A DNA stretch of 58,701 bases. Origin: Chiloscyllium plagiosum (taxonomy: Eukaryota). Below are positions 4,531 to 58,701 of the stretch, one piece after another. Numbering within the stretch: the first letter of the stretch is position 1; each line of letters begins with the position of its first letter. The DNA lies in the NCBI RefSeq assembly GCF_004010195.1, contig NC_057719.1, positions 32,775,948 through 32,834,648 of the forward strand, read 5' to 3'. The notes under the pieces were generated by a model, which worked only from the letters and a program-made list of their open reading frames with translations, was not told where the DNA came from and made no database searches. A program made the translations under genes and the position numbers.

Positions 4531-5446
4531 CGATAATCAATCCTTGCCTCTCCAAATGCATGGAAATCCCATCTCTGAGAATTCCGTCCAACAACTTACT
4601 CATCACTGAAGTTCGGTTCACATGTCATTACAGCCTTCTTTAAATAAAAGCACAACATTAGCCACCCTCCATTCCTTCAGCACCTCAACTGGGGCTGTAG
4701 ATCATATAAGTATCTCTGCTAGGGGCCCCACAAATTCTTCCTTAACTTCCCACAATGTTCTGGGATACATTTGATCAGGTCCCTCTGATTTATGCACCTT
4801 CACATTTTTAGGACCTCCAGCACTTCCTCTTCTGACACGTGGACTGTTGTCAAGACATTAATATTTACTTCCCCAAGTTCCCTAGCCTCTATTTCTTTCT
4901 CCACATTAAAAACTGGCATGGAGTATGAGTTTAACATGTCTCCCATCACCTGTGGTTCCACCCATAAACAAGCTCATTGATCTTTAAAGGGCCCTATGCC
5001 CTTGCTCTTAATCTACTTGTAGAATCTCTTTGGATTATCTTTAACCTATCCACCAAGGCTATCTCAAATTTACTTTTTGCCCTCCTGATTTCCCTTTTAA
5101 GAAAATGCCCCTATCCCTCATACTCTTCAAGAAATTCATTTGATTTGAGTTTTTTTATTCCTTATATATGACTTCGAATTATCCTTGACCAGAGCTTCAA
5201 TATATTTATTCATCTGTTGTTCCATATTCTTACCAGCCTTACCCTTAACTTTAACTGGAACATAATTCCTCTGAACGCTTGTTATCTCACTTTTGGAAAG
5301 CATCTCGCTTGCCAGTCATCCCTTTTACCTGCGAACAGACTACTCAGATCAACTTTTGAAAGTTCCTGTCTCATACTGTCAAAATTTGCCTCAATCCCAT
5401 TTAGAACTTTAACTTTTATACAAGGTCCATCCTTTTCCATAACCAT

Positions 5447-7040
5447 GGGGTCAGTGATCATAATTCTGCTAGTTTTAAGATAGTTTTGGAAAACGATAGA
5501 CCTGATCTCAAGGTTAAAGTTTAAACTGGAGTGAGGTAAATTTTGACAGTATTAGGCAATAACTTTCAAAAGTTGATTGGGAAAGACTATTCGCAGGTAA
5601 AGGGATGGTTGGAAAGTGGGAGGCCTCCAAAAATGAGATAATGAGAGTCCAGAGGAAGTATGCTCCTGTTAGGTTAAAGGGCAAGACTGGTAGGTGTAGG
5701 CAATGCTATGACTAGAAATTGAGGCTCTGGTCAAGAAAAGGAATATGGCAGAGATAGCCTTGGTGGATAAGATTAAGGATAATCCAAAGAGATTCTACAA
5801 ATATATTCAGAGCAAAAGAACAACTAGGGAGAGATATACTTAAGGAGGAAATCAGGAAGGCAGAAAGGAGACATGAGATAGCTTTGGCAAATAGGGTTAA
5901 GGAGAATGCAAAGAGATTCTGCAACGACATTAAGGGCAAAAGAGTAACCAGAGAGAGAACAGGGCCCTTAAAGATTAACAAGGTGATCTCTGTGTGGAAC
6001 TGCAGGAGATGGAGGAGATACTAAATGAGCATTTCACATCAACATTTACTGTGAAGAAGGATATGGAAGCTAGAGAACTTGAAGAAATAAATAGTGATGT
6101 CTGGAAAAAGATCCGTATTACAGAGGAGGAAGTGTTGGACATCTTAAAATGGATAAAAGTGGATAAATTCCTGAGACCTGATCACGTGTATCCTAGAGCT
6201 TTGTGGGAAGCTGGGAAAGTGATTGCTTGGCTCTTTACTAAGATATTTGTTTCATTGGTAGCCGCTGGTAAGGTATCGGAAGACTGGAGGGTGGCTAATA
6301 TAGACCCATTATTAAAGAGAGACGGTAAGGGTCCTAGGGAACAGAGCAGGGTGCAGGCTCATAGCTCATTGAAGGGGGAGATGCAGGTAGATAGGGTAGT
6401 GAAGAAGCATTTGGTACACTTGCCTTTATTGATCAGTGCATTGAGTATTGGAGTTGGGATGTCAAGTTGTGCTGTACAGGATATTAGTTAGGGCACCATA
6501 GGAAAACTGCAAGTAATCTTAGTCTCCCTGTTATAGAAAAGATTTTGTTAAACTTGAAAGGGTCCAGAAAAGATTTACCAGGATATTGTCAGGGTTAAAG
6601 GGTTTGGGTTATCGGGAGAGGCTGAATAGCCTGGGGCTTTTTCCCCTGGAGTGTCAGAGGCTGAGGAGTGACCTTATAAAGGTCTATAAAATTGCGAGCA
6701 GCATGGATAGGTGAATAGCCAAAGTCTTTTTCCCAGGGTAGAGGAGTCCAAAACTACAGGACATAGTTTAAGTTGAGATTTAAAAGTGATTTAAGGGTAA
6801 AGTTTTTCATGCAGAGAATGGCGCATATATGGAATGAGCTGCCAGAGTAAGTGGTGGAGGCTGATACAACTGCAACATTTAAAAGGCATCTGCATGGGTA
6901 CATGAATAGCAAGGATTTAGAGGGATATGGGCCAAATGCAGGCAAATGACACAAGCCTTATTTAGGATAACTGGTCAGCTTGGATAAGTTGGACTGAAGT
7001 GTTTGTTTCCGTGCTGTACATTTCTATGAGTCTATGGCTC
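5447..7040 (+). mobile_element. CR1-type LINE, 5'-truncated and internally deleted, with 3' end
   Basis: ORF 5994-6491 EEEVLDILKWIKVDKFLRPDHVYPRALWEA...EDWRVANI; 3' end gtttccgtgctgtacatttctatgagtctatg. Confidence 0.85.
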
Positions 7041-12731: not shown

Positions 12732-12829
12732 ATGCATTTATGGTATTTTTGAAGTATTGCACACAAGAAAACTTGGCAATATAGTCAGCCGCCAGATCTT
12801 AATGAAATTCTGGCCATAGATAATACCAG

Positions 12830-13048
12830 CGCTGAAAATGTGTTGCTGGAAAAGCACAGCAGGTCAGGCAGCATCCAGGGAACAGGAGAATCGACGTTTC
12901 GGGCATAAGCCCTTCTTCAGGAATGAGGAAGGGCTTATGCCCGAAACGTCGATTCTCCTGTTCCCTGGATGCTGCCTGACCTGCTGCGCTTTTCCAGCAA
13001 CACATTTTCAGCTCTGATCTCCAGCATCTGCAGACCTCACTTTCTCCT
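12830..13048. mobile_element. Penelope-like terminal repeat (family A), near-perfect head-to-head palindrome
   Basis: ~85-bp arms almost identical; candidate TSD catagataataccag (12815-12829) / catggagaataccag (13049-13063), 13/15 match. Confidence 0.88.
12891..12922 (-). ncRNA. Minimal hammerhead ribozyme motif (family A), intact core, sense to the MDGA2 pre-mRNA
   Basis: Reverse complement reads UC-CUGAAGA-A-GGGC-UUAU-GCCC-GAAA-CG-UC-GA. Confidence 0.72.
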
Positions 13049-13200: not shown

Positions 13201-14279
13201 GGAACTGGTAGAAAATACCAGTGGCAATCTCCCATCACAAATCAGAAGGAATCTTGTGTGGGAGGGTATATCCCCTCAGTTGTTGAGGTATGGAATTGAC
13301 ATGTTTTCATACGTTTATATAAGTTAAATGTGTCTCTGTCTCCGTCTCTGTCTCTCTCTCGCTCTCCATACATGCTGCCAATAATTCCATCAATTTTGGT
13401 TTTTGCTTGTTTCAAATCCCTAGCATCTGTCGTTCTTAGTTTTATTTTTGCTGACTCAGGGGCTTGTTGGATGCTTTCAGGCTTTTGGACCTGTTGTCCC
13501 TGGTCATCATTTGATGCAGCTTGCTGAATCTGCTCTGCTTGGCTGTGACTAAACGTACAAGATCAATGCTGCAGTCTGCAGCACCGGTGTTGCAAATACC
13601 AAGTTTGTTACCTCATGGATTCTAACACTGTATAGATCTGTGCAAAGATTGCCCAGCAATAGGCGATCCATCTCTTTTAATGATGTAAAACATTTATAGC
13701 ATCTAGCCCATCGAACTGAATTGGTATTGAAGGTGGTTATTGTCAGAGGCAGGGGAGTGATCTGGACATTTCCTTTTCTTTTGGCTGTTTGTTTTATTTC
13801 CGTTTCTGTTTTTAATCCTGTCCCTTGTACACTAAGAGGGTGCTGGAGGTTGGTGACTTGATACACTTTTCACCGTCTTCCGCTATTCCTGAAATTGAGG
13901 CTGGCACATATCAGATGCCAATGTATGGAGGCCATTGCCCACTGTGTGTGCCCTGAGAAGTTGCTCAGTGCTGTCCAGTGTGATGTCTGGTGGAACAAGG
14001 GGCAGATTGAAGTTGCCAGGCACCTTTTCCATGTCACATTTTCTTGACATATAGCTTACGTGGTGCATTTAGTAAGATGACAAGTGGAATAATAATGAGA
14101 CAAGCTGTGCTATTAATAAGGCATTTTGCTAACTATAATCCTCCTAATTGGCAACACTCCAACCGAGAAACTTGGTTGAAACCCAGCAAAAGCATACAAG
14201 ATCCTCTCCAGCTAGATCCTCTCCAGCTAGATCTCACTGGATCTCTCATCTGGTTCTGCTACAAATCCCACCATAGCCC

Positions 14280-15879: not shown

Positions 15880-16059
15880 GATTTGGAGATGCTGGTGTTG
15901 TACTGGGGTGTACAAAGTTAAAAATCACACAACACCATGTTACAGTCCAACAGGTTTAATTGGAAGTACAAGCTTTCAGTGCGCCAAAGAAGTGGCACTC
16001 CGAAAGCTAGTGCTTCCCATTAAACCTGTTGGACTGTAACCTGGTGTTGTGTGATTTTT
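15880..16059. mobile_element. Penelope-like terminal repeat (family B), head-to-head palindrome
   Basis: aaaaatcacacaacaccatgttacagtccaacaggtttaat / attaaacctgttggactgtaacctggtgttgtgtgattttt. Confidence 0.82.
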
Positions 16060-16526
16060 CGCTTTTCTTTTAGGTTTCCTTGCTTGTCAAATGGAACTGG
16101 AGAGTGTCTCTTGGCCCAACAAAGAAACTTTGGGCCTACCCTACCCAGAGTAGCCCATATACACTCCAAACCATGATCCCCAATTGAACCTTGCCCTACC
16201 TGCCCAACCACTTCATTTGGTCCAAGGGACCATTATTCCAGGACCAGACTGGAAATAATGTTGATTGGACAGGAGGCCAAGCATTGAGATAGCAACAAAA
16301 TCAGGGAGTTAAAATCTGTTGAGGTCTCTTGTGGCATGTAATCCGAACACTCTTCATGGCCCAGACATCCACTGAACCCACTCACTTCATAAAAAGAGAG
16401 CCAGGATCCCTTAGAAGGTCCAAGTACAGATAAGAGGCTGAGAAGGCCCTCTCAAGCAAATGCTGATATTGTCCCAACATTTACCATGTGCCCAGGTAAT
16501 TGGTGCATGAATGGTATTCTGCCACT

Positions 16527-28638: not shown

Positions 28639-29471
28639 TTGGTTGAGTGGCAGGAAACAGAGAGTTGGAATCATAAATACTCAAATTGGCAGGATGTGAC
28701 TAACGAGTGTCCAGCACAGATCTGTGTTGGGGGCCCAGTTGTTCATAATATTCCTTACTGACTTAGATAATGGCACAAACTTGGGCAGCATTAGAGACAG
28801 TGTTGCCAACAACATAAAATTACAATAGTATATTGATAGATTGGGTGAATGGGCAAAGCTGTGACAGATGGATTGTAATATAGGCAAGTGTGAGGTTGTC
28901 CATTTCAAACCAAAAAAAGGAGACATCAGGGTGTTTTACAGTGGATGTCCAACAAGATTTGGGGGTTCAGGTACACAGCAATCAGGTGTACTACAATCAG
29001 GTGCAGAAAATAGTGAAGAAAGCCAATAGAATGCTGGCTTTCATATCCAAAGGGCTTGAGTAGATGTAGAGATTGTGTTGCAGTTATTCAAAACTCGAGT
29101 TAAACCCCACTTAAAGTAATGAGAGCAGATCTGGACACCACACTTTAGGAAGGATGTTTTGACCCTGGAGAGAGTTCAATGCAGGTTTACAAGGATGATA
29201 CTTGGACTTCAGGTGTTCAGTTATGAGGAGAGATTAGACAAAATAGGCCTATATCGTCTAGAATGTAGAAGGTTAAGGAGTGATCTAATTGAGGTTTTCA
29301 GGATGTTACCAGGGAATGACTGGAAGATAAGGATAAACTATTTCCACTGGTTGAAGGTTCTAGAACCGGGGTCACAGTCTAAAAGTTAAGGCCAGGTCAA
29401 AGTTTGTAAGAAGATTTGTAGCTCGGGTGCTCGTTGTTGTAGTTCTGTTCGCCAAGCTGGGAATTTGTGTT

Positions 29472-29511
29472 GCAGATGTTTCGCCCCCTGTCTAGGTGAC
29501 ATCCTCAGTGC
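29472..29511 (-). ncRNA. Minimal hammerhead ribozyme motif (family C), mirror copy
   Basis: Exact reverse complement of 29934-29973. Confidence 0.68.
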
Positions 29512-29933
29512 TTGGGACCCTCCTGTGAAGCACTTCTGTGATGTTTCCTCCGGCATTTATAGTGGTTTGTACCTGCCGCTTCCGGTTGTCAGTTCCAGCT
29601 GACCGCTGCAGTGGTTGGTATATTGGGTCCAGGTCGATGTGTTTGTTGATAGAATCTGTGGATGAGTGCCATGTCTCTAGGAATTCCCTGGCTGTTCTCT
29701 GTTTGGGTTGTCCTATAATAGTAGTATTATAGGAGAAGCCAAACAGAGAACAGCCAGGGAATTCCTAGAGGCATGGCACTCATCCACAGATTCTATCAAC
29801 AAACACATCGACCTGGACCCAATATACCAACCACTGCAGCGGACAGCTGGAACTGACAACCGGAAGCGGCAGGTACAAATCACTATAAATGCCGGAGGAA
29901 ACATCACAGAAGCGCTTCACAGGAGGCTCCCAA

Positions 29934-29973
29934 GCACTGAGGATGTCACCTAGACAGGGGGCGAAACATCTGC
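29934..29973 (+). ncRNA. Minimal hammerhead ribozyme motif (family C)
   Basis: GCA-CUGAGGA-U-GUCACCU-AGAC-AGGGGGC-GAAA-CA-UC-UGC; stem I GCA/UGC. Confidence 0.68.
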
Positions 29974-30799
29974 AACACAAATTCCCAGCTCGGTGAACAT
30001 AACCACAACAATAAGGCCAGGTCATTTAGGAGAGATGTTCTAAAGCAAAGAGTAGTGGAGGTTTGGAAATCTCTTCCTCAAATGGTGGTCGATGTTAATT
30101 CAATTGTTAAATTTAAATCTGAGGTGGACAAATTTTTATTAAGCAAAGAGACCAAGGGATATGAGCCCAAGGCAGGCATATGGAGTTAGGTCACAAATGA
30201 GCCCTGATCTTATTGAATGGTAGAACATGCTCAAAGGGCTGAATGGCCTACTCCTCTTCCTATGTTCGTATTTATCTCTTGAAATGCACGTTAACTTTCT
30301 GCATATAAATATTCACTATTATAAAAGTGTTTTGTTTTTCGACTCTCCCCACCAGTTTCAAGCATTACATTCCACTGGCCCTCTTCTTGCCCTATCACTG
30401 ATTTGGGGTTTGACAGGACAAACACTGTAAGGTTGTTTATCTCTCACTTGGGGGATACTCTTGGCTTAATGCCTGGACCATTTAAAACTGAGTTGAGGAG
30501 AAATTCTTCACTCAAGGATTTATAAATACGTGAAATTTTCTGCAGCAAAGAATTGTGGATGATTCATTGGCAAATGTGTTTAAGGCAGGAGCATGCAGAT
30601 TCTTGATCTCTCAGGGAATGACGGATTCTGGGGAGCAGACAGGAAATTGACGATGACGTCCAAAGTCAGTCCTGATCATGTTGAATGACAGGGTTAATTC
30701 AACAGGCCAAATAATCTATTCTTGGTCTGTATCTTTATGCAGCCTCTTTATATTCTTCTTACTTCAAATTTAGCTTTGTATCAGCAAAAAGCTTCAATC

Positions 30800-35360: not shown

Positions 35361-37732
35361 TTTTAAATTTTTTTAAAATTGATATTGACAAAGTGTCAAT
35401 CACTTCAAACAAATGGAGGGAAAGATGAAAACTGTGGCCTAGGATAATGGACCAAACACCACATCAGGACAGTGGACAACTTAACCAACTAGTCATGATA
35501 AGGGATTCAACCCCAAACACTAATCCATAACTCCCTTACTCCCAAGTGCTGTGAAGCAGCACCCTTCACTGCTAATGCCTGTTATTTGAGATTAAATCTT
35601 CTGAATGTATTGTTAAAGCCAGAGAGCTGATCTAGCAGAATGATCAGGTGCTGTTCATGGGCTTCATTGGAAAAGTGAAGGAGCCCAAAAACAGAGCATT
35701 TACAATTTCAATTTCATTTTCCCAGAATTTGCAGTCTTTTATCTTTACTTCACCAGGGAAGAAAATTAGGTTGTACTCTGGTTTTACTTACAAATTTCAT
35801 TTAAGTACTTTTAAGATCATATATTTTCAGCAATGGTTCAAGAGGAACCATTTGAATGCAGGTCTGCAATTAAACCAATTGCATATACAGAGCAGTACCA
35901 GACTAAACCATGGTCAGCAGCTTTATATATTGCTCTTTCCCAGCATGTGTTCACCTTGAATACTGGCCTGTAGCAACCAGTAATATTGTTGGTGAAGAAA
36001 ATTTACATTTTCCCACTGACATTTACCAGCAAAGCTGTAAACAAGAAGTGTATCATCTGAATGGAAGCTGATATTATGAATGAATCTCATAGCTTACAGT
36101 ATAATATTTTTCCAACAGTTGCACTTCTTCAATATTACATTTTCTGAATCTTGAAGCTTATTCCAGTAGCTAAACTTTAATTCCCAAAGATTAATTCTGT
36201 ATATTGGAATGCATCAATGGATTAACCAGAAATGATATATATTTACTGCAAAGATGTATACCCACACTGCAATTGCTAGATCAATAAAGATGAGGCATTA
36301 AAAACAACAGGGAGCATTTTATTATCTAATAATGTCACATTGAGGGTCTCATGTTGGGTAATTGATAGTGATGAGACTTATACAATAAAACATTGTGATT
36401 CAAAAACAATAAATACTGCGTCCGGCAGACAAGATAATGGCAAAGATTATCACCGCATGAACAATTCTATCATAAATTTTTCCCAATAAACTCTTTATAC
36501 AAAGTTCTTTGCCGCAGTATAATTTATAGAAAAAAGTTGGTCTATTCAATTGTTAATAAATTGATGCACTTCAATACTTGTATCAATCATGCTTACAATC
36601 TCATTATGTGACATAACCTGCCAACTTACATGGTCTCTCTACCCCCATAGTATCAAAAAAATTAAGGCCAGAACAATTCCTTATATGAATTCCTCATATC
36701 CTGCTCTTCCCTCCAAAACCCAACTTTTGTGCCTGCATTCTCAAATAATCAACTGTCGTACGTATGCCTCTTTGTTCACCATGACTTTCTACAGTTACGA
36801 TTCTTCTCAAGTAAGTTCCCACCTATATCTTCAATGCTTTAGATCCCATTAAAACCATTCCTTTATCTCACTTTGACCATACCCCAAGTGTGGTCCACTT
36901 CTATGCTCCCTTAATTCAACGGATGTAAACTTGGAACGATATGGTGGATGTAAAGGTAAAGTCCAAATTCTTTACTTTAAACTATTAGTTAAAATCTCTT
37001 TCCACTATATCTTCCACCCTCACCTGGAGCAGCCATGTTTGAATGGTGCAGCAGACTTGATAGGTCGAATGGTCTAGTTCTGCTTCCTCCTCAGAAAAAT
37101 GATGTTTTACACCTTCCTCCTCAGAAAAACAATGTTTTATATCTTTGGTCCTTTGAAATAGCTTTGATAGTGCTATCACCTTCAAATGCGTGCCCTGTAC
37201 CCTGAAACTCCATGTTTGAATCACGCCAACAAGGTATTTACTCCTCCTATAGGAATGATATGCTGTGTAATTGGTACAAATATATAAAGCCCTCTTTGTA
37301 CTTCTTGCCTTTGATACACTTGATCATACTATCCACCTCCAAAGATTCACCATTGTCATCAAGCTGGACAAGAGTACACTAACTTTGTTTCCTTCTTATC
37401 TATCTAACTGCAGTTCAAGAACAGATTTTAATGTCTTCTCCTCCCATTCCTATATCTTTGTCACTTCCAAAGATCTATCCTCAGCCCCCTCCCATTCCTC
37501 AGCTACATGCTGTACTCAGTGACACTCAAATCAGTTTCCTTCTGTTGGCTGATGACATGCAGCTCTACTTCACCATCACATGACCCGATCTCGTCGCTAG
37601 ATTGTCAAAACTATTTGACCAATATTCTGCACAGAATAAGCACAAACTTCCTCTTAATAAATATTGGGAAGACCAAAGCATTGTCTTCAGGCCATTCCAG
37701 AAACTCCATTAGCTCACCATCAGCTCCAAACT

Positions 37733-40700
37733 TTTAGATTTTAGATTTCATTGGCACTTGCACTCAAGTACAGACGTATAGTCAAAAGTGCATAATGTTA
37801 CCAGATATGGTCCCATTTTAGGTTCCAAGGGATCTAGGTACAAAAGTAGCTTAGGTACAAAGTAATAAGAGACAGAGGATGAATAGAAAAATAAAGAACT
37901 AGGTAATAGTTTACATTAAAATCTTTCATAGTTTAAACTCGGAAAATAAAGGAATAAGTTAAAAGTTCAACAGTCTTTCATGAGTCCTCCGCTAATCTTG
38001 CTCAGCTGCCTGTTCTTGATACCACTGTCACAGATATCATCACTGCTGCTGGAACTGCTGCCTCCCGATCACCCCCGTTGCCTCAGCAACATACTCGGAC
38101 AAGGTCCACTCTCATGTTGAGCTGAGACACTGCCTTGACCACTGAGAGACCAACTGTCACACCGCCCAGAGACTGGGAGCTACCGGGATTGACCGAGAGA
38201 CTGGGCTGAGAGCCATCGTGATTCACCGAGAGACAGGGCCAAGAGCTGCCGTGATTCACTGAGAGACAGGGCTGAGAGACACCGTGATTCACCAAGAGAC
38301 TGGGCTGAGAGCCACAGTGATTCACTGAGAGACCGGGCAGAGAGCTGCCGTGATTCACCAAGAGACCGGGCCGAGAGCTGCCATGATTCACCAAGAGACT
38401 GGGCTGAGAGCCACTGTGATTCACCGAGAGGCCAGACAGAGAGCTGCCGTGATTCACTGAGAGACTGGGCTGAGAGCCACTGTGATTCACCAAGACTGGG
38501 CTGTGAGCTGCCGTGATTCACCGAGAGACCAGGCCCAGAGCCATTGTGATTCACCGAGAGACTGGGCTGAGAGCTGCCGTGATTCACCAAGAGACCGGGC
38601 TGAGAGACACCGTGATTCACCGAGACACTGGGCTGAGAGCCACTGTGAATCACCGAGAGACTGGGCTGTGAGCCACCATGATTCACTGAGAGACCGGGCT
38701 GAGAGCTGCCGTGATTCACTGAGAGACTGGGCGCTGAGCTGCCGTGATTCACCGAGAAACCGGGCTGAGAGCCACCGTGATTCACTGAGAGACCGGTCAG
38801 AGAGCTACCGTGATTCACCGAGAGACCGGGCTGTGAGCCACCAAGATTCACCGAGAGACTGGACTGAGAGCTGCCATGATTCACCGAGAGATGGGATTGT
38901 GAGCTGCCGTGATTCACCGAGAGACGGGGTTGAGAGCTGCTATGATTCACCGAGAGACTGGGCTGAGAGCAGCTGTGATTCACCGAGAGACTGGGCTGAG
39001 AGCCAACGTTATTAACCGAGAGACCGGGCTGAGAGCTGCCGTGATTCACCGAGAGACTGGGCTGTGAGCTGCCGTGATTCACTGAGACACCGGGCTGAGA
39101 GCTGCTGTGATTCACCGAGAGACTGGGCTGTGAGCTGCCGTGATTCACCAAGAGACCGGGCAGAGAGCTGTCGTGATTCACTGAGAGACCAGGCTCAGAG
39201 TGGCCATGCTTCACCGAGAGACCAGGCCGAGACCCACCGTGATTCAGCGAGAGACCAGGCCGAGATCCATCGTGATTCACCGAGAGACCGGGCTAAGAGT
39301 CACCGTGATTCAGCGAGAGACCGGGCCGAGATCCACCGTGATTCACCGAGAGACTGGGCTGAGAGCTGCCTTGATTCACTGAGAGACCGGGCAGAGAGCT
39401 GCCGTGATTCACCGAGAGACCAGGCTGTGAGCTGCCGTGATTCACTGAGAGACCGGCGTGTGAGCTGCCGTGATTCACTGAGAGACTGGGCTGTGAGCTG
39501 CCGTGATTCACCGAGAGACCGGGCAGAGAGTTGCTGTGATTCACCGAGAGACTGGGCTGAGAGCTATCGTGATTCACCGAGAGACCGGGCTGAGAGCTGT
39601 CGTGGTTCACCGAGAGACTGGGCTGTGAGCTGCCATGATTCACCGAGAGACTGGGATGAGAGCTGCCGTGATTCACCGAGAGACCTGGCTGAGAGTTGCC
39701 ATGATTCATCGAGAGACTGGGCAGAGCGCTGCCATGATTCACCAAGAGACTGGGCTGTGAGCCACTGTGATTCACCGAGAGACCGGGCTGAGAGCCACCG
39801 TGATTCACCGAGAGACCGGGCAGAGAGCTGCTGTGATTCACTGAGACACCGGGCTGAGAGCTGTCGTGATTCACTGAGAGACCAGGCTCAGAGTGGCCAT
39901 GCTTCACCGAGAGACCAGGCCGAGACCCACCGTGATTCAGCGAGAGACCAGGCCGAGATCCACCGTGATTCACCGAGAGACCGGGCTAAGAGTCACCGTG
40001 ATTCAGCGAGAGACCGGGCCGAGATCCACCGTGATTCACCGAGAGACTGGGCTGAGAGCTGCCTTGATTCACCGAGAGACCGGGCAGAGAGCTGCCGTGA
40101 TTCACCGAGAGACCGGGCTGTGAGCTGCCGTGATTCACTGAGAGACCGAGCTGTGAGCTGCCGTGATTCACTGAGAGACTGGGCTGTGAGCTGCCGTGAT
40201 TCACCGAGAGACCGGGCAGAGAGTTGCTGTGATTCACCGAGAGACTGGGCTGAGAGCTATCGTGATTCACCGAGAGACCGGGCTGAGAGCTGTCGTGGTT
40301 CACCGAGAGACTGGGCTGTGAGTTGCCATGATTCACCGAGAGACTGGGATGAGAGCTGCCGTGATTCACCGAGAGACCTGGCTGAGAGCTGCCATGATTC
40401 ATCGAGAGACTGGGCAGAGAGCTGCCATGATTCACCAAGAGACTGGGCTGTGAGCCACTGTGATTCACCGAGAGACTGGACTGAGAGCCACCCTGATTCA
40501 CCGAGAGACCAGGCTGAGAGCTGCCGTGATTCACCGAGAGACCAGGCTCAGAGTTGCCATGCTTCACCGAGACACCGAGCTGAGATCCACCGTGATTCAC
40601 TGAGAGACTGGGCTGAGAGCTGCTGTGATTCACCGAGAGACTGAGCTGTGAGCCACCGTGATTCAGCCAGCGACCAGGCCGAGATCCACCGTGATTCACC

Positions 40701-40910
40701 AAGAGACTGGGCTGAGAGCTGCCGTGTTTCATTGAGAGACCGGGCCGAGAGCCACCATGATTCACCGAGAGACTTGGCTGAGAGCTGCCATGTTTCATTG
40801 AGAGACCGGGCCGAGAGCCACCGAGAGACCAAGGGGGAACAAAAACAAGAGAAGGAAACAGAAGGATTGGAGGAGCTTCGTTTGGAGAATCCTACTCCAT
40901 TGCCATCGTG
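37733..40910 (-). mobile_element. Putative VNTR-bearing non-autonomous retroposon, copy 1
   Basis: Both flanks are homologous to those of 47941-50332, and it interrupts an L2 relic. Minus strand starts gatggcaatggagtagga and ends ...gtgccaatgaaatctaaaatctaa. Confidence 0.65.
38197..40825. repeat. 33-bp GC-rich minisatellite, ~80 units
   Basis: Unit gagagactgggctgagagctgccgtgattcacc; produces the RDWAESCRDSP and SVNHGSSQPGL repeat ORFs. Confidence 0.97.
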
Positions 40911-41399
40911 ACCACTCCTTGGCAACTATTTGAAGCAGAACCAGACTATTTGCAACTTCAGTGGCATAGGTGATCCCAAGGTGAACTCCCAATCACATAT
41001 TCACACCATCACGAGGCCTTCATAACAATTGCCCATCCCCACCCCAATCTCAGAATCTCTGCTGTAAACACATTAACGATTCATTTGTTATACACAGACT
41101 TGTCTTTTCTAATGTACTTCCAGCTGCCCTCGGACATAAATCTCTTTAAAGATGTCAGGTCGTCAAAACTCTGCTGGTCCTGTCCCAACTCAGGCTAGAT
41201 GCCATTCACCTACTATGCCTGTACTCACTGACCTACACTATTTTCACTTTTAAAGTTTTCACCCTGGTTTCAAAACCTTTGCATTTCCTCGACCCAAACT
41301 CTCCATCATCTAACTCCTGTCAGTGCTCACCTATTTCTAGATCTAGTGGGTGTGGCTTCAGTGACTGTGCCCTCAGTTCTGGAATACCCACCCTACAGT

Positions 41400-41770
41400 T
41401 CACAAGACTAATTCCTTGGATAGCCAAATGCCTCGTGAGGACGGATTGTGGAGCATGCCCTGTATTCTCTCAAGTTTTGATGACTGAGAAGTGGTTTCAT
41501 TCAGTGTTTTGATTTTTAATTGTGATGCAGAAAGGATGTTTTGCCTGGCTGGAGGGTCTAGACTCAGAAAACACAATCTCAGAATAAAAGGCAATCTGTT
41601 TGGCACCAAGGTGAGGGGTAATTTCTTCACTCAGATGCTAAGAATTGTTGGGAATTCTATGTGGAAGCTTAGCCATTGACTGTTCAGGCCTAGGATCAAT
41701 AGATTAATGGATATGAATGACACCAAATAGACATAGTGTTTCATAGGAAAATGGCATTGAACAACATCGA
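41400..41770 (+). mobile_element. CR1 3' fragment
   Basis: ERMFCLAGGSRLRKHNLRIKG..FGTKVRGNFFTQ. Confidence 0.7.
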
Positions 41771-41782
41771 GTCAGAGAGTCA

Positions 41783-44700
41783 TAGAGGAAAGCATACCAA
41801 ACGCCTTCTTCACTATCCTATCTACCTGTGACTCCACTTTCAAGGAGCTAGGAATCTGCACTCCAAGGCCTCTTTGTTCAGCAACACTCCCTAGGACCTT
41901 ACCATTAAGTGTATAAGTCCTGCTAAGATTTGCTTTCCCAAAATGCAGTACCTCGCATTTATCTGAATTAAACTCCTTCTGCCACTCCTTAGCCCAATGG
42001 CCCATCTGATCAAGATCCTGTTGTAATCTAAGGTAACCTTCTTTGTTGTCCACTACACCTCCAATTTTGGTGTCATCTGCAAACTTACTAACTGTACCTC
42101 TTAAGCTCACATCCAAATCATTTATATAAATGGCAAAAAGTAGTGGAGCCAGTATCGATCCTTGTGGCACTCCACTGGTTACAGGCCTCCAGTCTGAAAA
42201 ACAATCCTCCACCACCACCCTCTGTCTTCTGCCTTCAAGCCAGTTCTGTATCCAAATGGTTAGTTCTTCCTGTATTCTGTGAGATCTAACCTTGCTAATC
42301 CATCTCCCATGGGGAACCTTGTCGAATGCCTTACTAAAGTCCATATAGATCACATCTACCGCTCTGCCCTCATCAATCCTCTTTGTTACTTCTTCAAATA
42401 ACTCAATCAAGTTTGTGAGACATGATTTCCCATGCACAAAGCCATGTTGACTATCCCTAATCAGTCCTTGCCTTTCCAAATACATGTACATCCTGTCCCT
42501 CAGGATTCCCTCGAACAACCCACCACTGACGTCAGGCTCACCGGTCTATAGTTCCCTGGCTTGTCCTTACCGCCCTTCTTATACAGTGGCACCACGTTTG
42601 CCAACCTCCAGTCTTCTGGCACCTCACCTGTGACTATCGATGATACAAATATCTCAGCAAGAGGCCCAGCAATCACTTCTCTAGCTTCCCACAGAGTTCT
42701 AGGGTACACCTGATCAGGTCCTGGGGATTTATCCACCTTTAACCATTTCAAGGCATCTAGCACTTCCTCCTCTGTAATATGGACATTTTGCAAGATGTCA
42801 CCATCTATTTCCCTACAGTCTACATCTTCCATATCCTTTTCCACAATAATTACTGATGCAAAATCCTCATTTAGTATCTCTCCCATTTTCTGTGGCTCCA
42901 CACAAAGGCCGCAGATCTTTGAGGGGCCCTATTCTCACCCTAGTTACCCTTTTGTCCTTAATGTATTTGTAAAAACTCTTTGGATCTCCTTAATTCTATT
43001 TGCCAAAGCTATCTCATGTCCCCTCTTTGCCCTCCTGATCTCCCTCTTCAGTATACTCCTACTTCCTTTATATTCTTGTAAGGATTCACTCGATCTATCC
43101 TGTTTGTACCTGACATATGCTTCCTTCTTTTCCTTAACCAAACCCTCAATTTCTTTAGTCATCCAGCATTCCTTATACCTACCAGCCTTTCCCTTCACGC
43201 TAACAGGAATATACTTTCTCTGGATTCTCGTTATGTCATTTCTGAAGGCTTCCCATTTTCCAGCTGTCCCTTTACCTGCGAATATCTGCTCCCAATCAGC
43301 TTTCGAAAGTTCTTGCCTAACACTGTCAAAATTGGCCTTTCTCCAATTGAGAACTTCAACTTTTAGATCTGGTCTATCCTTTTCCATCACTATTTTAAAT
43401 TTATTAGAATTATGGTCACTGGCCCCAAAGTGCTCCCCCACTGACACCTGCCATGCCTTATATCTCAAAGGTAGGTCAAGTTTTGCACCTTCTCTAGTCG
43501 GTACATCCACATACTGACTCAGAAAATTGTCTTGTACACACTTAACAAATTCCACTCCATCTAAACCCTTAAGACTAAGGCAGTCCCAGTCTATGTTTGG
43601 AAAGTTAAAATCCCCTACCATAATTACCCTATTATTCTTACAGAGAGCTGAGATCTCCTTACAAGTTTATTTCTCAATTTCCCTCTGACTATTGGGGGGT
43701 CTATAATACAATCCCAATAAGGTTGTCATCCCTTTCTTATTTCTCAGTTCCACCCAAATAACTTCCCTGGATGTATTTCCTGGAATATCCTCCCTCAGCA
43801 CAGCTATAATACTATCCCTTATCAAAAATGCCACCCCCCTCCTCTCTTGCCTCCCTTTCTATCCTTCCTGTACCATTTGTATCCTGGAACATTAAGCTGC
43901 AAGTCCTGCCCATCCCTGACCCATGTTTCTGTAATTGCTATGATATCCCAATCCCATGTTCCTAACCATGCCCTGAGTTCATCTGCCTTCCCTGTTAGGC
44001 GCCTTGCATTGAAATAACTGCAGTTTGATTTATTAGTCCTATCTTGTCCCTGACTGTTTGACTCGCTTCTGTGCTAAACTGTACCAGTCTCAGATTGATC
44101 TCTTTCCTCACTATCTCCCTGGGTCCCACCCCCCCACCTTACTAGTTTAAATCCTCCTGAACAGCTCTAGCAAATTTCCCTGCCAGTATATTAGTCACCT
44201 TCCAATTTAGGTGCAATCCATCCTTCTTGTACAGGTCACTTCTACCCCAAAAGAGATTCTAATCATCTAAAAATGTGAATCCTTCTCCCACACACCAGCT
44301 CCTCAGCCATGCATTCATCTGCTCTATCCTCCTATTCCTGCCCTCACTAGCTCGTAGCACTGGGAGTAATCCAGTTATTATTACTCTCGAGGACCTCCTT
44401 TTACAATTTCTGCCTAACTCCCTGAAATCTCCCTTCAGAATCTCAAACTTTTCCCTTCCTATGTCGTTGGTTCCAATGCAGGCAATGACCTCCTGCTGGC
44501 CCCTCTCCCCCTTGAGAACATTCTGCACCCTCTCTGTGAGATCCTTGATCCTGGCACCAGGGAAGCAACACACCATTCTGCTTTTTCACTGCTGGCCACA
44601 GAAACGTCTGTCTGTACCTCGGACTAGAGAATCCCCGAACACAATTGATCTCTTGGAACTCGACGTACCCCTCATTGCATTAGGGCCAGTCTCAATACCA

Positions 44701-45655
44701 GAAATTTGGCTGTTCATGCTATATTCCCTGAGAATCCATCACCCCCTACATTTTCCAAAACATCATACCTGTTTGAAATGGGTATATCCACAAAAGACTC
44801 CTGTACTAGCTGCCTTCCTCCCCTACCTTTCCTGGAGTTAACCCATCTATGTGATTGTATCTGAAACTTTCCCCCCTTCCTGTAACTGCTATCCATCACA
44901 TACTGTTGCTGTTGCAAATTCCTCATTGCTTCTATCTGTCTCTCCAACCGATCCATTCGATCTGATAAGATTTGCAGCCAACAGCATTTATGGCAGATAT
45001 AATCCGCAGTAACCCTTAAACTCTCTTCAAACTCCCAAATCTAACAAGAAGTACATATTACTCTATTAAAGGCCATTTTTGCTGATTCACAATCTATAGA
45101 CCCAGAAAATAACACCGTCTTATTCCTCTACAAACACTGCCCCAGATTAAATTAATAGTTATGGCTTATATTTTAAATTTAATCAAGAGACTTATCTCCA
45201 AAAACATATAATCAAGAAAGAACCCACTCTTCTCACTACTGCAGATTCTCTGTAGGCCACACTTAAATATAATACAATACACTTATCTGCTTCTGTGTTG
45301 TGAACTTCGCCGAACAGTTCCTCCAAGATCAGTTGTGAATTTCACTGTTTGTTAATTTTCTCAGATGCACTCCGATGTCCAACGATACATGAATTCAAAC
45401 AGCAAAGGCAGTAACTGTGCAGGTTCTCTCTTTCTCTCTCTCCCTCCTGCAATGACCTCACCATGTGCTTCTTTTGTCTGTTCTTCTTCCTTTTAAAACT
45501 GCTGTTGTTTTGACTTTTTTTTTCCAAAGTTCCAAAACAATGCAACAGCATATAAAACTGTAATTGCTGCTCCTGGAATTCGAGGAAATCACCTCCACCT
45601 AAAGTACCTCAAAAAAGGAGCAGAAATTTTTCCTGTCCTCCATCTTGAATAACCC
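41783..45655 (-). mobile_element. CR1-type LINE retaining 5' UTR, ORF1 (esterase) and ORF2 EN-RT; 3' end missing
   Basis: ORF1: DRLERQIEAMRNL and VCCFPGARIKDL...IGTNDIG (SGNH-like esterase). EN: GDFNFPNIDW and [33 protein letters not shown]. Several frameshifts. Confidence 0.95.
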
Positions 45656-45679
45656 AAAATTCTCAGACCTCTTTCAACA

Positions 45680-46440
45680 TTTTATGATAAATGCCATTGG
45701 GTCTAGGGTAGTTGTCAGCTTTAAATCCTATTAATTTCTTCAAACCTAATTTTTTCAAATGTCACTTTCTTTCAGGTTAACATTCTCACCAAAGCCTTGG
45801 ATCTTAATTATTTCAATGAGATTTCTTTTGTCTTCCTCTGAGAAAACATTCATAAAATCTCTGTTCAGTTTTTCAGCTATTTCTCTGTTTCCTCTTATAA
45901 ATTCTTCTGTCTCTGGCTGTAAAGAACCCACATTTATCTTCATTCATCTTTACCTTTTTACACACCTACTGAATCTTGACATGTTATTTTTATGTCTCTT
46001 TCTGTTTTATATTCAGATTCTATTCTCTCTGTTAATAATTCATTGGTTCTTCCTTGCTGAATCCTGAAATTCTCCCTATCATCAGACTTACATTTATTAA
46101 CCACTTCCTTTGAACTTAGACTTTGCTCAACTTTCCTCATTAGCCATGGTTCTCTCAATTCCTCTGTTGGCTATTTTGCCTTAAAGGAATTTATACCTTT
46201 CATTTGAAAAACAACCATTAAATCTTTCAATACGATCCATTTCCTATCTAATGTCAAACCTTCTAATGTGTTTTTCTAATTGGCCACAGGCAAGTTTCTT
46301 CCCATAATTTCATAATTGCCCTTATTTAGATTTAATTCAGATTGAACTACATCATTGTTGTCTAAGATGAAATCTAAAATAAGCTATGCTCTGTTTGGTT
46401 CCTCAACATATTACTTGACCTGCTATTTCCAGGATTCTGT
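45680..46440 (-). mobile_element. Old CR1 ORF2 fragment
   Basis: NVGSLQPETEEFIRGNREIAEKLNRDFMNVFSEED. Confidence 0.7.
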
Positions 46441-46779
46441 CTTCTTATTTCATTAAGAACTTTCACCTTCTTCTCAGGACAACAATTAAAGCCATCCTTT
46501 GATCTTGAGCAATCAAACCATGTTTGCTTATTCTCAGGCAAACTTCAGAACATGTTACATGACCGCCTCCATTTACCTTAAATTACAGATGCAGTCACAA
46601 CCTATAACTTGTAATAATTACATAAACAAGCTTTTCGGAACATAATTAAGTAAATTGAAAAATATGTTTTATGCCTCATATCTATACTTACCTACAACTT
46701 AGTATCATTCTGAATAAGTCTGAAATTATGACAAAGATAGTCACACCATCTTGTTCTCCTGTAAGTGAATTAGCCACCG

Positions 46780-47345
46780 AGTCATTAGAGTCAGACAGCA
46801 CACAAATAGACCCTTCAGTCTAACCAGTCCCTGTCGACCATAATCCAAACATAAACTAGTCCCACCTCTCTGTACTTAGCCTACATCCTTCCAAATATTT
46901 CTTATTCAAGAACTTATCCAAACATCTTTAAAACATTGTCACATCCACCGCTTCCTCTAGCAGTTCATTCTACACCTGAACCACTCTCTTTGCAAAAAGG
47001 TTGCCCCTCAAGTCTTTTTAAATCTTTCTCCTCTTAGCTTAAAAATATACCCCCAGTCTTGAAATCCCTAACCCTAAGGAAAAGACACCTGCTGTTCACC
47101 TTATCTGTATCCCTCAAGATATTATATATCTCTATAAGGTTACTCCTCAACCACCTAAGCTCCAGTGAAAAAAAGTCGTAGTCTATCTAGCTTATTTTTA
47201 TACCTCAAACCCTTTATTCCTGGCAACATCCTGGTAAATCGGAACCCTCCCTGATTTAATAATATCCTTCCAATAACAGGACGACCAGAACAGCACACTG
47301 TATTTCAGAAGAGGCCTCACCAATGTCTTATACAACCTCATGACA
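46780..47345 (-). mobile_element. CR1 3' end
   Basis: Reverse tail gagtcattagagtcagacagcac followed by typical CR1 3' sequence. Confidence 0.78.
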
Positions 47346-47940
47346 TCTGGCCCTTGTTGCAGGTCGTACAGGGTCCAAGAATGAGAACACCATCAAAATA
47401 ATTGTGAATAATTTGACATTCCAACAATGAAAATCCCTCCCTCTTGAAGGTACAGAATATAGGCATATCTTTAATAATAAGAAATTTACCTTTGAATGTT
47501 TCCAAGAGATTCTTATTGTATTTTGTACACAATCATGTTGGACTCTTGAATCAGTCAAACTTTGTAATATGTTTTGGAAATAAAAACAGAAAATTCTGGA
47601 AAAACCTAACAGGTCATGCAGAAACTGTGAAGTGATGAAAAGGCATCAACTCGAAGTATTTTTCTCTCCATAGATGCTGCCAGATCTGCTGAGCAATTGC
47701 AGCAATTTCTTTTTATTTTAATTATCCAGCCTCCACAATCTTTTGTTTTCTGCATTGTTACGGCTCATTTATAAATGAATTAAAATGAATTTTAAAAAAA
47801 CACTCATTACACAACTACCTACAATTTTTCAGGGTTGTTTTATTTAAGAAAAAAATCTTAGATATACAGTAATCATCGTCTGCAACCATTTTCATGCGTA
47901 ATGAGGAATTGGCAAGTGACTCAGATGCCAGATTTTGATT

Positions 47941-50332
47941 TATTAGAATTAGAATTAGACTTAGCTTTATTGTCACATTTACTCAAATTAGAGAAAAGTT
48001 TACAACTCACCAGTTACAGTACCATCTTACGTACTTAGATACTTAGATACAGCTTCTTAAGCACAATTTTCTGGGGAAAAAATTAGAATAATAAAGAAAT
48101 AAAAGTTCAGAATAACAATCCTTCCAACCCAGCACATCCCAGCACCTAGCCTCCAGTCTGGGGTTCATCTTGAAGCTGCAAGTCCAGGCTAAGGCCACAT
48201 CACAGCTGGAGACTGCCATGCTGGGCTGAAAGACCAACATGCCAGACTGAGAGACCATCACGCTTGGCCGAGAGGCCACCACACCGGGCTGAGAGACGAC
48301 CATGCTGGGCCGATAGACCGCTACACCGGGCCAATAGACCACCTTACTGGGTCAAGACACTGCCACACTGGGCTGACAGACCACCATGCCAGGCTGGGAG
48401 ACAACCACGCTGTGCTGAGAGACCATCAGACTGAGCTGAGAGACCACCACATCGGGCTGAGAGACCACTACGCTGGATTGAAAGACCACCATGTTGGGCC
48501 AAGAGACCACCTTGCTGGGTCGATAGATCGTTACACCGGGCCGATAGACCACCACACTGGGCTGACAGACCACCTTGCCAGGCTGAGATACAACCATGCT
48601 GGGCTGAGAAACCATCATACTGAGCTGAGAGACCACCACATCTGGCTGTGAAACCACCAGCTAGGCTGAGAGACTACCATGCTGGGTCGAGAGCCCACCA
48701 TGTTGGACCGAGAGACAGCCATGCCAGGATGAAAGACCACAATGCTGTACTGAGTGATTGCCATGCCAAGAGACCACCATGCTAGGCTGGCAGACCGCCA
48801 CTCTGGGCTGATAGACCACCATGCTGGGCCAGTAGACCACCACACTAGGCTGAGAGACAACCATACCAGGCTGACAAACAACACATCAGGCTGAAAGACC
48901 ATCCCGCTGGGCTGAGAGACCACCATGCCAGGCTGAGAGGCCACCACGCCTGGCAGAGAGGCCACCACATCAGGCCAAGAGGCTGCCATGCTGTGTCGAC
49001 AGACTGCCACACGAGGCCAAGAGACCGCCATGCTGGGCCAAGAGATTGCCGTGCTGAGCCGATAGACTGCCACACTGAGCCGAGAGACCACCACACCGGG
49101 CCAAGAGACCAACGTACCTGACCGAGAGACTATCACAGCGAGCCAAGAGTCCATCAAACTGGGAGATTGCCACACCGGCCGAGGGGTCGTCATGCGAGGC
49201 CGAGAGACCACCACGCAGTCGAAGAGACTGCCACGCCAAGCTGAGGGACTGCCATGCCGGGCCGAGAGACCACCTCACCAGGCCGAGAAAATGCCATGTC
49301 AAGAGACTGCAATGATGTGTCGACAGACAGCCACACTCGGCCAAGAGACCGCCACACTGGGCTGAGAGATCACTATTCTGGGCCTATAGACTGCCATACC
49401 AAGCCGAGAGACCACCTCACCAGGCCGAGAGACCACCAGACTGAGCCAAGAGTCCTTCACACTGAGCTGAGTGACCACCATGCTGGGCCGAGGGACCATC
49501 ATGCCAAGCAGAGAGACCGCCATGTTGGGCCAAGAGACCACCATGCCAAGCTGAGAGAATGCCACACCAGGTCAACAGACCACCACGTTGGGCCAAGACA
49601 CCACCATACTGGGCCGATAGACTGTCACGATGGTCAGGTAGACTGCCACGCTTTCTGACAGACTGCCATACCGAGCCAAGAGACTGCAACACTGGGCCGA
49701 GAGACCGCCACTCTAAGACACCACCACGCTTGGCAGAGAGACCAGCAAGCAGGGGCGATAGACCGCCACGCCGAACCAAGAGACTGCCACGTTGGGCTGA
49801 GAGACCACAACGTCAGACTGAGAGACCACCACCCTGGGCAGAGAGACTCCCATGCCAAGCCAAGAAAATGCCACGCTGGGCCAATAGGCAACTGCACTGG
49901 ACCAATAGACCGCCATGCCAAGCCGAGAGACTGCTACGCTGAGAGTCTGCCATGGTGGGACGAGAGACAGTTCCGCTGGGCCAAGAGACTGCCACGCTCA
50001 GATGAGAGACTGCTACACTGTGCCAAGAGACTGCCATGCCGAGAGACCGCCATGCTGGGCCTAGAGACCGCTACACTGGACTGAGATACTGCCACGTTAG
50101 GCTGAGGGACCATCATGCCGAGAGATAGCCATGCTGCACCGGAAAACTGCAATTCCAGTCCAAGAGATTCCCATGCTGGGCCGAGAGACTGCTATACCGG
50201 GACTACTCTAAGGCCAGGAGTTCAGCACATTGTCGAGAGGAAGGAAAGGAAATAAAGTCACAAAAGAGAAGAAAGAGAGAAAGAAAGAAAAGAAATGGAC
50301 AACAGGGGTGTTCCCTGGCTGGAGATTCCTAC
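47941..50332 (-). mobile_element. Putative VNTR-bearing non-autonomous retroposon, copy 2
   Basis: Minus-strand 3' end tgtgacaataaagctaagtctaattctaattctaa (AATAAA plus simple-repeat tail); candidate 7-bp TSD tttgatt at 47934-47940 and 50333-50339. Confidence 0.65.
48205..50200. repeat. 21-bp GC-rich minisatellite, ~95 diverged units
   Basis: Unit approximately gctgagagaccaccatgctgg; produces the VVSQPSM-type repeat ORFs. Confidence 0.95.
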
Positions 50333-50439
50333 TTTGATTACAGAGTAGAATCTTTTTTGATGAAGTTATTGAGCAGTAATTATATAATTGTGATACTTGA
50401 CATGAATCCATGACTTCACCGCATTGGTCTGAAAGGAAA

Positions 50440-50770
50440 GGAGCTTGCCAGGAGATTTCAGAGGCGTGGGAATTGCGATCATCTTCAAGAAAGGAGACAG
50501 GTCTGACTGTGGAAATTACAGAGATATTTCCCAACTATTTACTCGGAAAAAAGCCAGCACGAGAATGTTCCTCAACCACCTCTACACAGTGGCTGAAGCA
50601 TCTCAATGTGGCTTTCACCCATCAAGAGGCACAATGGACATGGCTTTCAGTGCACAACGAATCCAAGGAAAGTACAGGAACAGCACAAACCTCTGTATGT
50701 GGCCTTCTTCAATCTCACAAAGACCTTTGACTCTGCCAGTTATGACACACTGTGGAATATCCTTCCTCAA
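50440..50770 (+). mobile_element. RTE-clade LINE RT fragment
   Basis: IIFKKGDRSDCGNYRDIS...SQCGFHPSRGTMDMAFSAQRIQ and QEQHKPLYVAFFNLTKTFDS are typical of RTE/BovB-like RT. Confidence 0.8.
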
Positions 50771-51319
50771 AGGGCATTCTGTGTTCTATAGGTAGACCCC
50801 ACAGTGCTGTTAAGGAGGGAATTTCAGGCTTGGAATGGCAATATAATTCCAGGATGGCAACTAGCTTGGACGGAAACTTGCAGCTCGTGGTATATCTTCT
50901 GTCCTTCTCTTTCTAGCTAGAAGTGACTCTGTGGGTTTAGAATGTGCTATCAAGGGAATTAGTTTTGGAATTAGGAATTTATTTTGATATACATTGTCAG
51001 GAGACTCAATGTCATCAATTCTTGTTACTGCCTTGAACATACATCAGGCATCACTTTGACGTAAAAGGACAAAAATATTTCATTTAATGGTTGAACCAGC
51101 CTTTGTATTATGGATCTGAAAAATAAATTGATGTGATATCTCTAATTTGAGTTTTACTTAAATAGAAGAGAAAAGACATCAATTTTCCATCTGCTGTGAG
51201 GTTGTAATGATTTTCTTATTGTCAATATTTAATGAATTTCACCACAAAGTCTAACCAGAAATTATTCTGAGATTGCTTCATGGAGCTCGAATACAGGATA
51301 GATTATGTTAAGATTTTAA

Positions 51320-57894: not shown

Positions 57895-58701
57895 TTATAC
57901 TGTGGAAAAGGATATGGAAGATATAGACTGTAGGGAAATAGATGGTGACATCTTGCAAAATGTCCATATTACAGAGGAGGAAGTGCTGGATGTCTTGAAA
58001 CGGTTAAAGGTGGATAATTCCCCAGGACCTGATCAGGTGTACCCGAGAACTCTGTGGGAAGCTAGAGAAGTGATTGCTGGGCCTCTTGCTGAGATATTTG
58101 TATCATCGATAGTCACAGGTGAGATGCCGGAAGGCTGGACGTTGGCAAACGTGGTGCCACTGTTTAAGAAGGGCAGTAAAGACAAGCCAGGGAACTATAG
58201 ACCGATGAGCCTGACCTTGGTGGTAGGCAAGTTGTTGGAGGGAATCCGGAAGGACAGGATTTGGAACATGTATTTGGAAAGGCAAGGACTGATTAGGGAT
58301 AGTCAACATGGTTTTGTGCATGAGAAATCATGTCTCACAAACTTGATTGAGTTTTTTGAAGAAGTAACAAAGAGGATTGATGAGGGCAGAGCAGTAGATG
58401 TGGTCTATATGGACTTCAGTAAGGCATTCAACAAGGTTCCCCATGGGAGACTGATTAGCAAGGTTAGATCTCATGGAATACAGGGAGAACTAGCCATTTG
58501 GATACAGAACTGGCTCAAAGGTAGAAAGGTGGTGATGGAGGGTTGTTTTTCAGACTGGAGGCCTGTGACCAGTGGAGTGCCACAAGGATCGGTGCTGGGT
58601 CCTCTACTTTTTGTCATTTACATAAATGATTTGGATGCGAGCATAAGAGGTACAGTTAGTAAGTTTGCAGATGACACCAAAATTGGAGGTGTAGTGGACA
58701 G
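57895..58701 (+). mobile_element. CR1-type LINE RT region, same subfamily as 41783-45655; runs off the window end
   Basis: Near-identical to the reverse complement of ~42050-42850 (gaaaaggatatggaagat...gatgacaccaaaattggaggtgtagtggaca). Confidence 0.93.

Follow-up and report, generated by a model that had tools for sequence, protein, structure and literature searches.

Two minisatellite arrays of a shark chromosome lie inside copies of an old, non-coding retroposon family with a Rex1-type 3' end

Composite retroposons that contain tandem repeats in variable number (VNTR) have been described as hominoid-specific (PMC7353768). The SVA and LAVA elements are non-coding and depend on a long interspersed element (LINE); they comprise a 5' pyrimidine-rich tract, a central GC-rich variable tandem domain with a unit structure typical of the subfamily, and a polyadenylation-type signal at the end (PMC7353768). 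Here we examine a stretch of 58,701 nucleotides (nt) of the shark Chiloscyllium plagiosum (NCBI RefSeq assembly GCF_004010195.1, contig NC_057719.1, positions 32,775,948 to 32,834,648; 'the window'), in which two minisatellite arrays reside inside two copies of one dispersed family with these same characters. Layouts are compared, and no homology with SVA or LAVA is claimed. Our main finding is an old non-coding family that was likely copied by a LINE of the Rex1/Babar type, and whose GC-rich periodic middle likely expanded after insertion into minisatellites private to each locus; we give this reading a probability of about 0.72.

For the arrays, the closest parallel is the satellites derived from short interspersed elements (SINEs) in squamates (sSat; PMC10702118), which also arise inside dispersed retroposons, keep element sequence at one or both ends and are more homogeneous when longer. 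These satellites, however, come from tRNA SINEs, tend towards a single unit at different loci and in most cases retain just one terminus (PMC10702118), whereas the shark family keeps both termini, is seeded by a fixed periodic domain and has locus-specific units. SlmI, HpaI and OS-SINE1 of salmonids and SINE2-5_NV are likewise non-autonomous, with a 3' end in common with a Rex1-type LINE, but they have tRNA or 5S heads and RNA polymerase III (Pol III) promoters (PMC3747384), while the shark family lacks a B box, gives no match to Rfam and has a middle prone to tandem repetition. Bipartite LINE derivatives without open reading frames (ORFs), such as Bov-A, RIME and NARTc, are also non-coding, presumed to be transcribed by RNA polymerase II (Pol II), and LINE-like in their first nucleotides and 3' end; they are reported for RTE, Ingi, Vingi and R2 only (PMC5786205). 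The shark family differs in that its 5' homology to the candidate helper is limited to a 10-nt motif and that nothing in this helper corresponds to several hundred bp of the family's middle and body. Finally, the elasmobranch SINEs HE1, SacSINE1 and CmiSINEs are non-autonomous retroposons of cartilaginous fishes too, but have tRNA heads, V, Deu or CORE bodies and CR1- or L2-type tails, and no Rex1 tail or VNTR is described for them in the available portions of the two papers (PMC5499810, PMC3747384).

Both arrays of the window were recovered by Tandem Repeats Finder (TRF), one with a period of 33 bp at 38173-40818 (80 copies, 82% matches) and one with a period of 21 bp over 48205-50110 (61-67% matches). 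Their left flanks align with a score of 80, compared to 31.4+/-5.0 in dinucleotide shuffles, none of 300 of which reached 80, and each has the other as its top non-self match out of 584 tiles of the window; pairwise alignment detected this homology, which self-BLAST of the window missed. The right flanks by themselves are weakly similar (score 40, z=3.8, equalled by 2 of 300 shuffles). Profile hidden Markov models (HMMs) trained on other copies of the family recognize a head to the right of each array (40907-40852, E 2e-9; 50333-50288, E 3e-4) and a tail to the left of each (37870-37748, E 3e-14; 48074-47966, E 1e-19). One dispersed family accounts for both arrays, with one copy around each. 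Copy 1 spans about 37732-40912 on the minus strand and is full length; copy 2, at about 47944-50333 on the same strand, has a head without its first ~14 nt. An initial annotation, made from the sequence alone, had proposed two VNTR arrays with homologous sequence on either side: the arrays and the left-hand homology are borne out, and the right-hand homology, weak in direct alignment, is recovered by the head HMM. The features of the two copies, with the basis of each assignment, are the following.

37300-37731, plus strand: L2-like LINE relic, left of copy 1 (translation)
37732-37790, minus strand: copy 1 Rex1-type 3' end, with decayed hairpin, AATGAA at 37752-37747 and two ATCTAAA units (tail HMM)
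37753-38172, minus strand: copy 1 body, subfamily A, with GC-rich linker, AT-rich body and the region of an internal second AAGATGG-type motif
38173-40825, minus strand: copy 1 33-bp minisatellite, ~80 units (TRF; unit core private to the locus)
39163-40476, no strand assigned: higher-order duplication in array 1, 693 bp or 21 units (39163-39783 versus 39856-40476, 9 mismatches in 621)
40826-40868, minus strand: copy 1 CT-rich tract (sequence)
40852-40912, minus strand: copy 1 head, with a YY1-type motif one change from CAAGATGG, then GAGTAGGA and GAGCTCC motifs (HMM)
40913-41330, plus strand: continuation of the L2-like LINE relic, right of copy 1 (translation)
47944-47971, minus strand: copy 2 AATAAA (47971-47966) and (CTAATT)n-type microsatellite tail (sequence; like the tail in other copies)
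47972-48204, minus strand: copy 2 body, of subfamily B, which includes an internal AAGATGG motif and the 3' hairpin (tail HMM)
48205-50200, minus strand: copy 2 21-bp minisatellite, ~95 decayed units (TRF; sequence)
50236-50287, minus strand: copy 2 CT-rich tract (sequence)
50288-50333, minus strand: copy 2 head, minus the ~14 first nt that include the YY1-type motif (head HMM positions 15-60)

As the initial annotation had noted, copy 1 splits a LINE relic: in the translations, reverse transcriptase (RT)-type motifs of the frame on its left continue on its right. No intact homologue of the relic spanning the site was found by tblastn among the fetched loci. The relic is one that we take to be L2. 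The 7-mer proposed as a target-site duplication (TSD) of copy 2 is present (47934-47940 and 50333-50339), but it is probably a chance match, because TSD-length matches occur in the family at the control rate: repeats of at least 7 nt flank 5 of 67 copies, compared to 6.6% in controls, and 0 of 40 when the boundary is defined in another way. Long ORFs in the arrays were dismissed as repeat artefacts; they have no Pfam match above cut-off.

To place the two copies in a wider context, the animal's own genome (3.56 Gb) was searched. The flank of copy 2 gave 1,133 candidates and that of copy 1 gave 1,113 (40 of each were scored). Exact matches number 1,570 for a 20-nt motif of the tail and 199 for a 21-nt motif of the head, against none for the reversed-pattern controls; since copies are 11-25% apart, these counts are lower bounds. 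Of these head matches, the 61 that come first along the chromosomes were taken as head loci: 48 of them reach a tail HMM match, at 356-2,086 bp with a median of 645, and most full-length copies measure 350-1,100 bp. The remaining 13 were compared with Rex1-B and with bodies of the element; at least 10 of them show nested insertions, a gap or diverged tails. The TRF program reports arrays in 21 of the 61 loci.

On the sense strand, the order of parts is a YY1-type head, a CT tract, a GC-rich periodic middle, an AT-rich body, a hairpin tail of ~38 nt and a short microsatellite. In the 48 full-length copies, family positions 50-110 are 84% C+T and the middle is 58% GC; the body carries a second AAGATGG-type motif ~60 nt before the end, and the hairpin is followed by AATAAA and a microsatellite with a unit of 5-7 nt that differs between subfamilies. 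A tree of 66 3' ends places copy 1 in a clade of 17 (support 99/97) and copy 2 apart from it, along with several more subfamilies, only 11 of its 63 inner branches being well supported. Among the loci we also observed minimal copies of 70-95 bp (L131, L125, and L144, ~1,020 bp upstream of the motif match), which extend from the internal AAGATGG motif, or near it, to the tail; these represent 5' truncations or else an ancestral mini-element that gained the upstream part afterwards.

The family is old: copies are diverged, and both insertions tested are common to two other organisms (B and C). No pair among 126 bodies is more than 89% identical, the median being 84%, and no young copy was seen among them. 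Contigs of both organisms bridge the tail junction of copy 1 at ~96% identity, as well as the junctions of the second copy tested (L198); no empty site was seen in either organism for these two insertions, and matches to the family occur in thousands of their contigs. As a transposon, the family has probably died out, but its arrays may be changing even now. We found no description of it in the open literature (subscription journals, supplements and Repbase/Dfam were not covered), and the chance that fragments are already catalogued in Repbase or Dfam, as unknown or as Rex-Babar, is about even.

What copied the family is suggested by its 3' end. A search for PF09004, which we take as a marker of Rex1/Babar, gave 15,436 candidates in the genome, in which at least two LINE families of this type were distinguished. 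One of them, Rex1-B, was traced backwards from the 3' end, across frames of RT- and APE-like type, as far as the 5' end (PF09004 at E 1e-7 in one fragment, the other four having no Pfam match), and ends in the same arrangement of hairpin, AATAAA and microsatellite as the family. Compared with 41 Rex1-B ends, family ends score 33.2 versus 19.1 when shuffled, and 48 of 48 lie above the highest shuffle; no similarity to Rex1-B was seen in alignment scores upstream of the last ~50 nt. The score with 23 ends of Rex1-A is 25.1, and this family, although ranked top for PF09004, was rejected as best helper, its hairpin tail being related but different and less similar. In the hairpin stem, 89.6% of 240 cells pair, compared to 12-55% when slid. 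The helper is likely a Rex1/Babar-type LINE of the same genome, with Rex1-B as the best, not proven, candidate.

The hallmarks of insertion fit target-primed reverse transcription, with truncated 5' ends, variable tails and no TSD. A head lies within 1.4 kb in 3 (HMM) to 4 (motif) of 30 tail-selected loci, three more of which have arrays or a gap that reach the 1.4-kb limit. Flanks are variable, with no fixed target dinucleotide. The family also has a conserved 3' end with an oligonucleotide tail of variable length, a feature stated in PMC6274825.

Three observations concern Rex1-B itself. One full-length insertion recurs with its flank ~27 times at 77-93% identity, in many cases on unplaced contigs (L226:740-990, L248-L273), and is a multiply duplicated segment. 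Within the Rex1-B 5' untranslated region (UTR), ~150 nt from the start, a conserved pyrimidine tract precedes CTTACAG followed by G, which resembles a splice acceptor (L278-L293). At L229:350-720 (Rex1-B sense), an antisense copy resembling the shark element abuts Rex1-B in place of its first ~140 nt.

Of 48 full-length copies, 35 have a significantly periodic middle, and a short degenerate repeat is therefore part of the element. Its period tracks the subfamily: A shows periods of about 33 or 23-24 bp and B one of 21 bp, with other values elsewhere. Long arrays are a different matter, as those of at least 500 bp occur in just 11 of the 61 head loci, with units that range from 15 to about 55 bp. 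Consensus units are 52-91% alike among six 33-mer arrays and 62-86% alike among five 21-mer arrays, the closest pair of 24-mers (L042/L325) reaches 88%, and no two compared arrays have a common consensus unit, which argues against arrays carried as cargo and decayed thereafter. The 25-nt core of the copy 1 unit has 8 exact matches genome-wide, all 8 in array 1. Four arrays are 95-97% homogeneous, while bodies never exceed the 89% given above, and a 693-bp block of array 1 is duplicated at 98.6%. Since units are private to their loci, the long arrays most likely grew in place after insertion. The highly homogeneous arrays of L004, L026, L138 and L295 end in assembly gaps, so their lengths are underestimated. 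One and the same insertion, whose 21-bp array is highly homogeneous, is present on three unplaced contigs (L002, L005, L007), which are either haplotigs or a local duplication.

The sense-strand head starts with CAAGATGGCG; read in reverse complement, this agrees with the YY1 site in L1 Tf monomers of the mouse (PMC11602158), and we infer from it a putative internal Pol II promoter. A master copy would have been transcribed, probably by Pol II from this YY1-type motif. A Rex1-B protein would then have recognized the ~38-nt hairpin, whose homology between element and LINE is evident, and reverse transcription would have been primed from the microsatellite tail, with an outcome in keeping with the many 5'-truncated copies without TSD. 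Masters of the different subfamilies carry the short degenerate tandem region with its subfamily-typical period; in a minority of copies, judging from their private units, slippage or unequal exchange after insertion would have multiplied one unit, or a few, to give arrays of 0.5-2.6 kb. This agrees with several proposals of the initial annotation: the family is non-coding, dispersed and LINE-mobilized, its internal repeat varies in unit length between copies, and the Rex1/Babar-type end supposed from the tail is now tied to an actual LINE of the genome.

A number of points weigh against this interpretation. The evidence for the promoter is a motif match. Poly(A) RNA reads (one run, 183 reads from ~2% of it) map to paralogues of the 3' body on either strand, with hardly any coverage of the head and no discrete starts or ends, and neither show nor exclude independent transcripts; a second run yielded no reads, and no RNA data set was listed for the flank of copy 1. 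At the 3' end, covariation in the hairpin is not above shuffles (127 of 500), RNAalifold gives no consensus structure, the common tail is short (~38-50 nt) and the hairpin loop is unlike that of Rex1-B. No LINE with the exact tail and loop of the element was found among 30 tail-motif and 70 PF09004 loci, and the true helper may therefore be another Rex1 family, unsampled or extinct. As for growth in place, the fact that unit length tracks the subfamily, together with similar units at L042/L325 (24-mers) and L312/L322 (50-mers), indicates that repeat structure is partly inherited. The homogeneity of array 1 (89%) is slightly above the 85% identity of its body to the subfamily majority, and its 693-bp duplication could be an assembly artefact. 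The homogeneity of array 2 (80%) is below its body identity (84%), which makes it an old expansion, one that could predate insertion.

Four other explanations were weighed. It is unlikely that the family is a bipartite deletion derivative of an unsampled Rex1 family, the head, CT tract and repeat being the 5' UTR of the LINE and the body and tail its 3' UTR. Full-length Rex1-B does start with the same 10 nt as the family head and has GAGCTCC at a similar spacing, its 5' region is GC-rich and internally repetitive, and it gives rise to copies with internal deletions: of 17 loci retrieved to examine its 5' end, 4 (L285, L286, L289, L292) are ORF-less or nearly so, the 5' 150-350 nt abutting the 3' end at a junction that differs from copy to copy. 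Beyond the 10-nt motif, however, heads are near shuffle level in their comparison with Rex1-B (15.0 versus 13.6; other Rex1 5' ends are unsampled), similarity resumes only in the last ~50 nt, and none of the 61 head loci runs into Rex1-B coding sequence, one having a separate Rex1-B copy 2.6 kb downstream. Sequence comparison found no Rex1-B sequence directly after the head in the 13 tail-less loci (their 84 short ORFs were left out of the Pfam scan), and the family is devoid of RT or endonuclease coding capacity. Rather less probable again is a true SVA analogue, in which long VNTRs evolved in the masters, belonged to the transposed RNA and aided mobilization. The order of domains is that of SVA (pyrimidine tract, GC-rich VNTR, unique 3' part, AATAAA), the periodicity of the middle and its link to the subfamily are as such a reading would have them, and the VNTR of SVA also varies by slippage and determines mobilization (PMC7353768). 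Against it stand the median copy of 645 bp, the rarity of long arrays, and units with no consensus in common, that of copy 1 being found at a single locus; masters would be needed in about the same number as arrays. The family also departs from SVA by ending in a hairpin of Rex1 type and a microsatellite in place of poly(A) and L1, by the lack of TSDs and of recognizable Alu- or ERV-like donor parts (the tail alone was traced; Repbase/Dfam were not covered), by units of 15-55 bp versus 36-50 bp, by an irregular CT tract after a 45-nt head instead of a regular (TCTCCC)n, and by its age and the absence of a long array, private to each locus, from most copies (PMC7353768). On the aligned ends, a composite in the SVA sense can be demonstrated just for the last ~40-50 nt. 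The SVA/LAVA analogy of the initial annotation is partly right: the layout with a central GC-rich tandem domain holds, but TSDs, and a VNTR of 2-2.6 kb that regularly moved with the element, are not supported.

A Pol III SINE, made of a decayed tRNA-Leu head and a Rex1-type tail, is improbable. The first ~20 nt of the head resemble the starts of the genome's tRNA-Leu genes (mean 20.3 versus 15.9 shuffled), and an A-box-like match is present in 16 of 48 copies versus 1.8 in shuffles, in heads that were selected by an overlapping pattern. A B box is seen in 3 of 48 versus 7.9 in shuffles, and Rfam has no match at E<=1 for the 6 loci submitted. Runs of T terminate Pol III, and those in the CT tract (positions 50-110) would stop it. 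We take RSg-1 to be of Rex1 type. SlmI, listed as a tRNA-Leu head with an RSg-1 tail (PMC3747384), would be the precedent, but in the shark family the tRNA-Leu likeness is weak and stops after ~20 nt, and this origin of the head was rejected because there is no B box. A search for an L1 ORF1 family found nothing and was uninformative. Elements of the Helitron/Helentron type have no TSD, carry a 3' hairpin and contain central tandem repeats, all of which applies here. A non-autonomous rolling-circle element with central tandem repeats is nevertheless hardly credible, and largely refuted, although no search aimed at Helitrons was made: the end formed by hairpin, AATAAA and microsatellite is that of an RT-encoding LINE in the same genome, microsatellite tails vary, 5' truncation leaves 3' ends intact, and there is no fixed target dinucleotide.

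The window holds further repeats. A weak third match to the 3' body of the family lies at 13822-13899 on the plus strand (E 8e-4) and is possibly an older relative. Perfect or near-perfect fold-back repeats and a large inverted LINE pair are found at 29434-30011, 12827-13016, 2293-2471, 15914-16065 and 4628-6328, and several of the fold-back repeats belong to one short family. Two LINE relics with RT frames, at 41772-43666 and 57898-58700, are 92% alike and inverted; we take them to be CR1-like. Another LINE relic, presumably RTE-like, is seen in translation to the right of copy 2, at 50400-50900.

Taken by its characters, the family works like a Rex1-tailed non-autonomous retroposon and resembles SVA in layout, without being an SVA element or a Pol III SINE by the definition of either. 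It is conceivable, although we regard this as doubtful, that it represents an undescribed cartilaginous-fish lineage of Pol II-transcribed, Rex1-mobilized VNTR retroposons, which would have invented the SVA layout independently and outside primates, with numerous subfamilies that each seed a different class of minisatellite, a major share in the birth of the genome's GC-rich minisatellites, and a periodic domain kept because it aided mobilization. On our preferred reading, that of an old Rex1-copied family with arrays grown in place, an SVA-like layout in a fish, within a Rex1-dependent and apparently non-Pol III family, would mean that this layout can arise with a stringent, hairpin-recognizing LINE. 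The family is a likely gap in shark repeat libraries. Thousands of similarly aged copies of one seed, common to related species, would constitute a natural replicated experiment on the birth of minisatellites; that some copies have grown to kilobases with different units, and most have not, bears on how units are chosen and homogenized.

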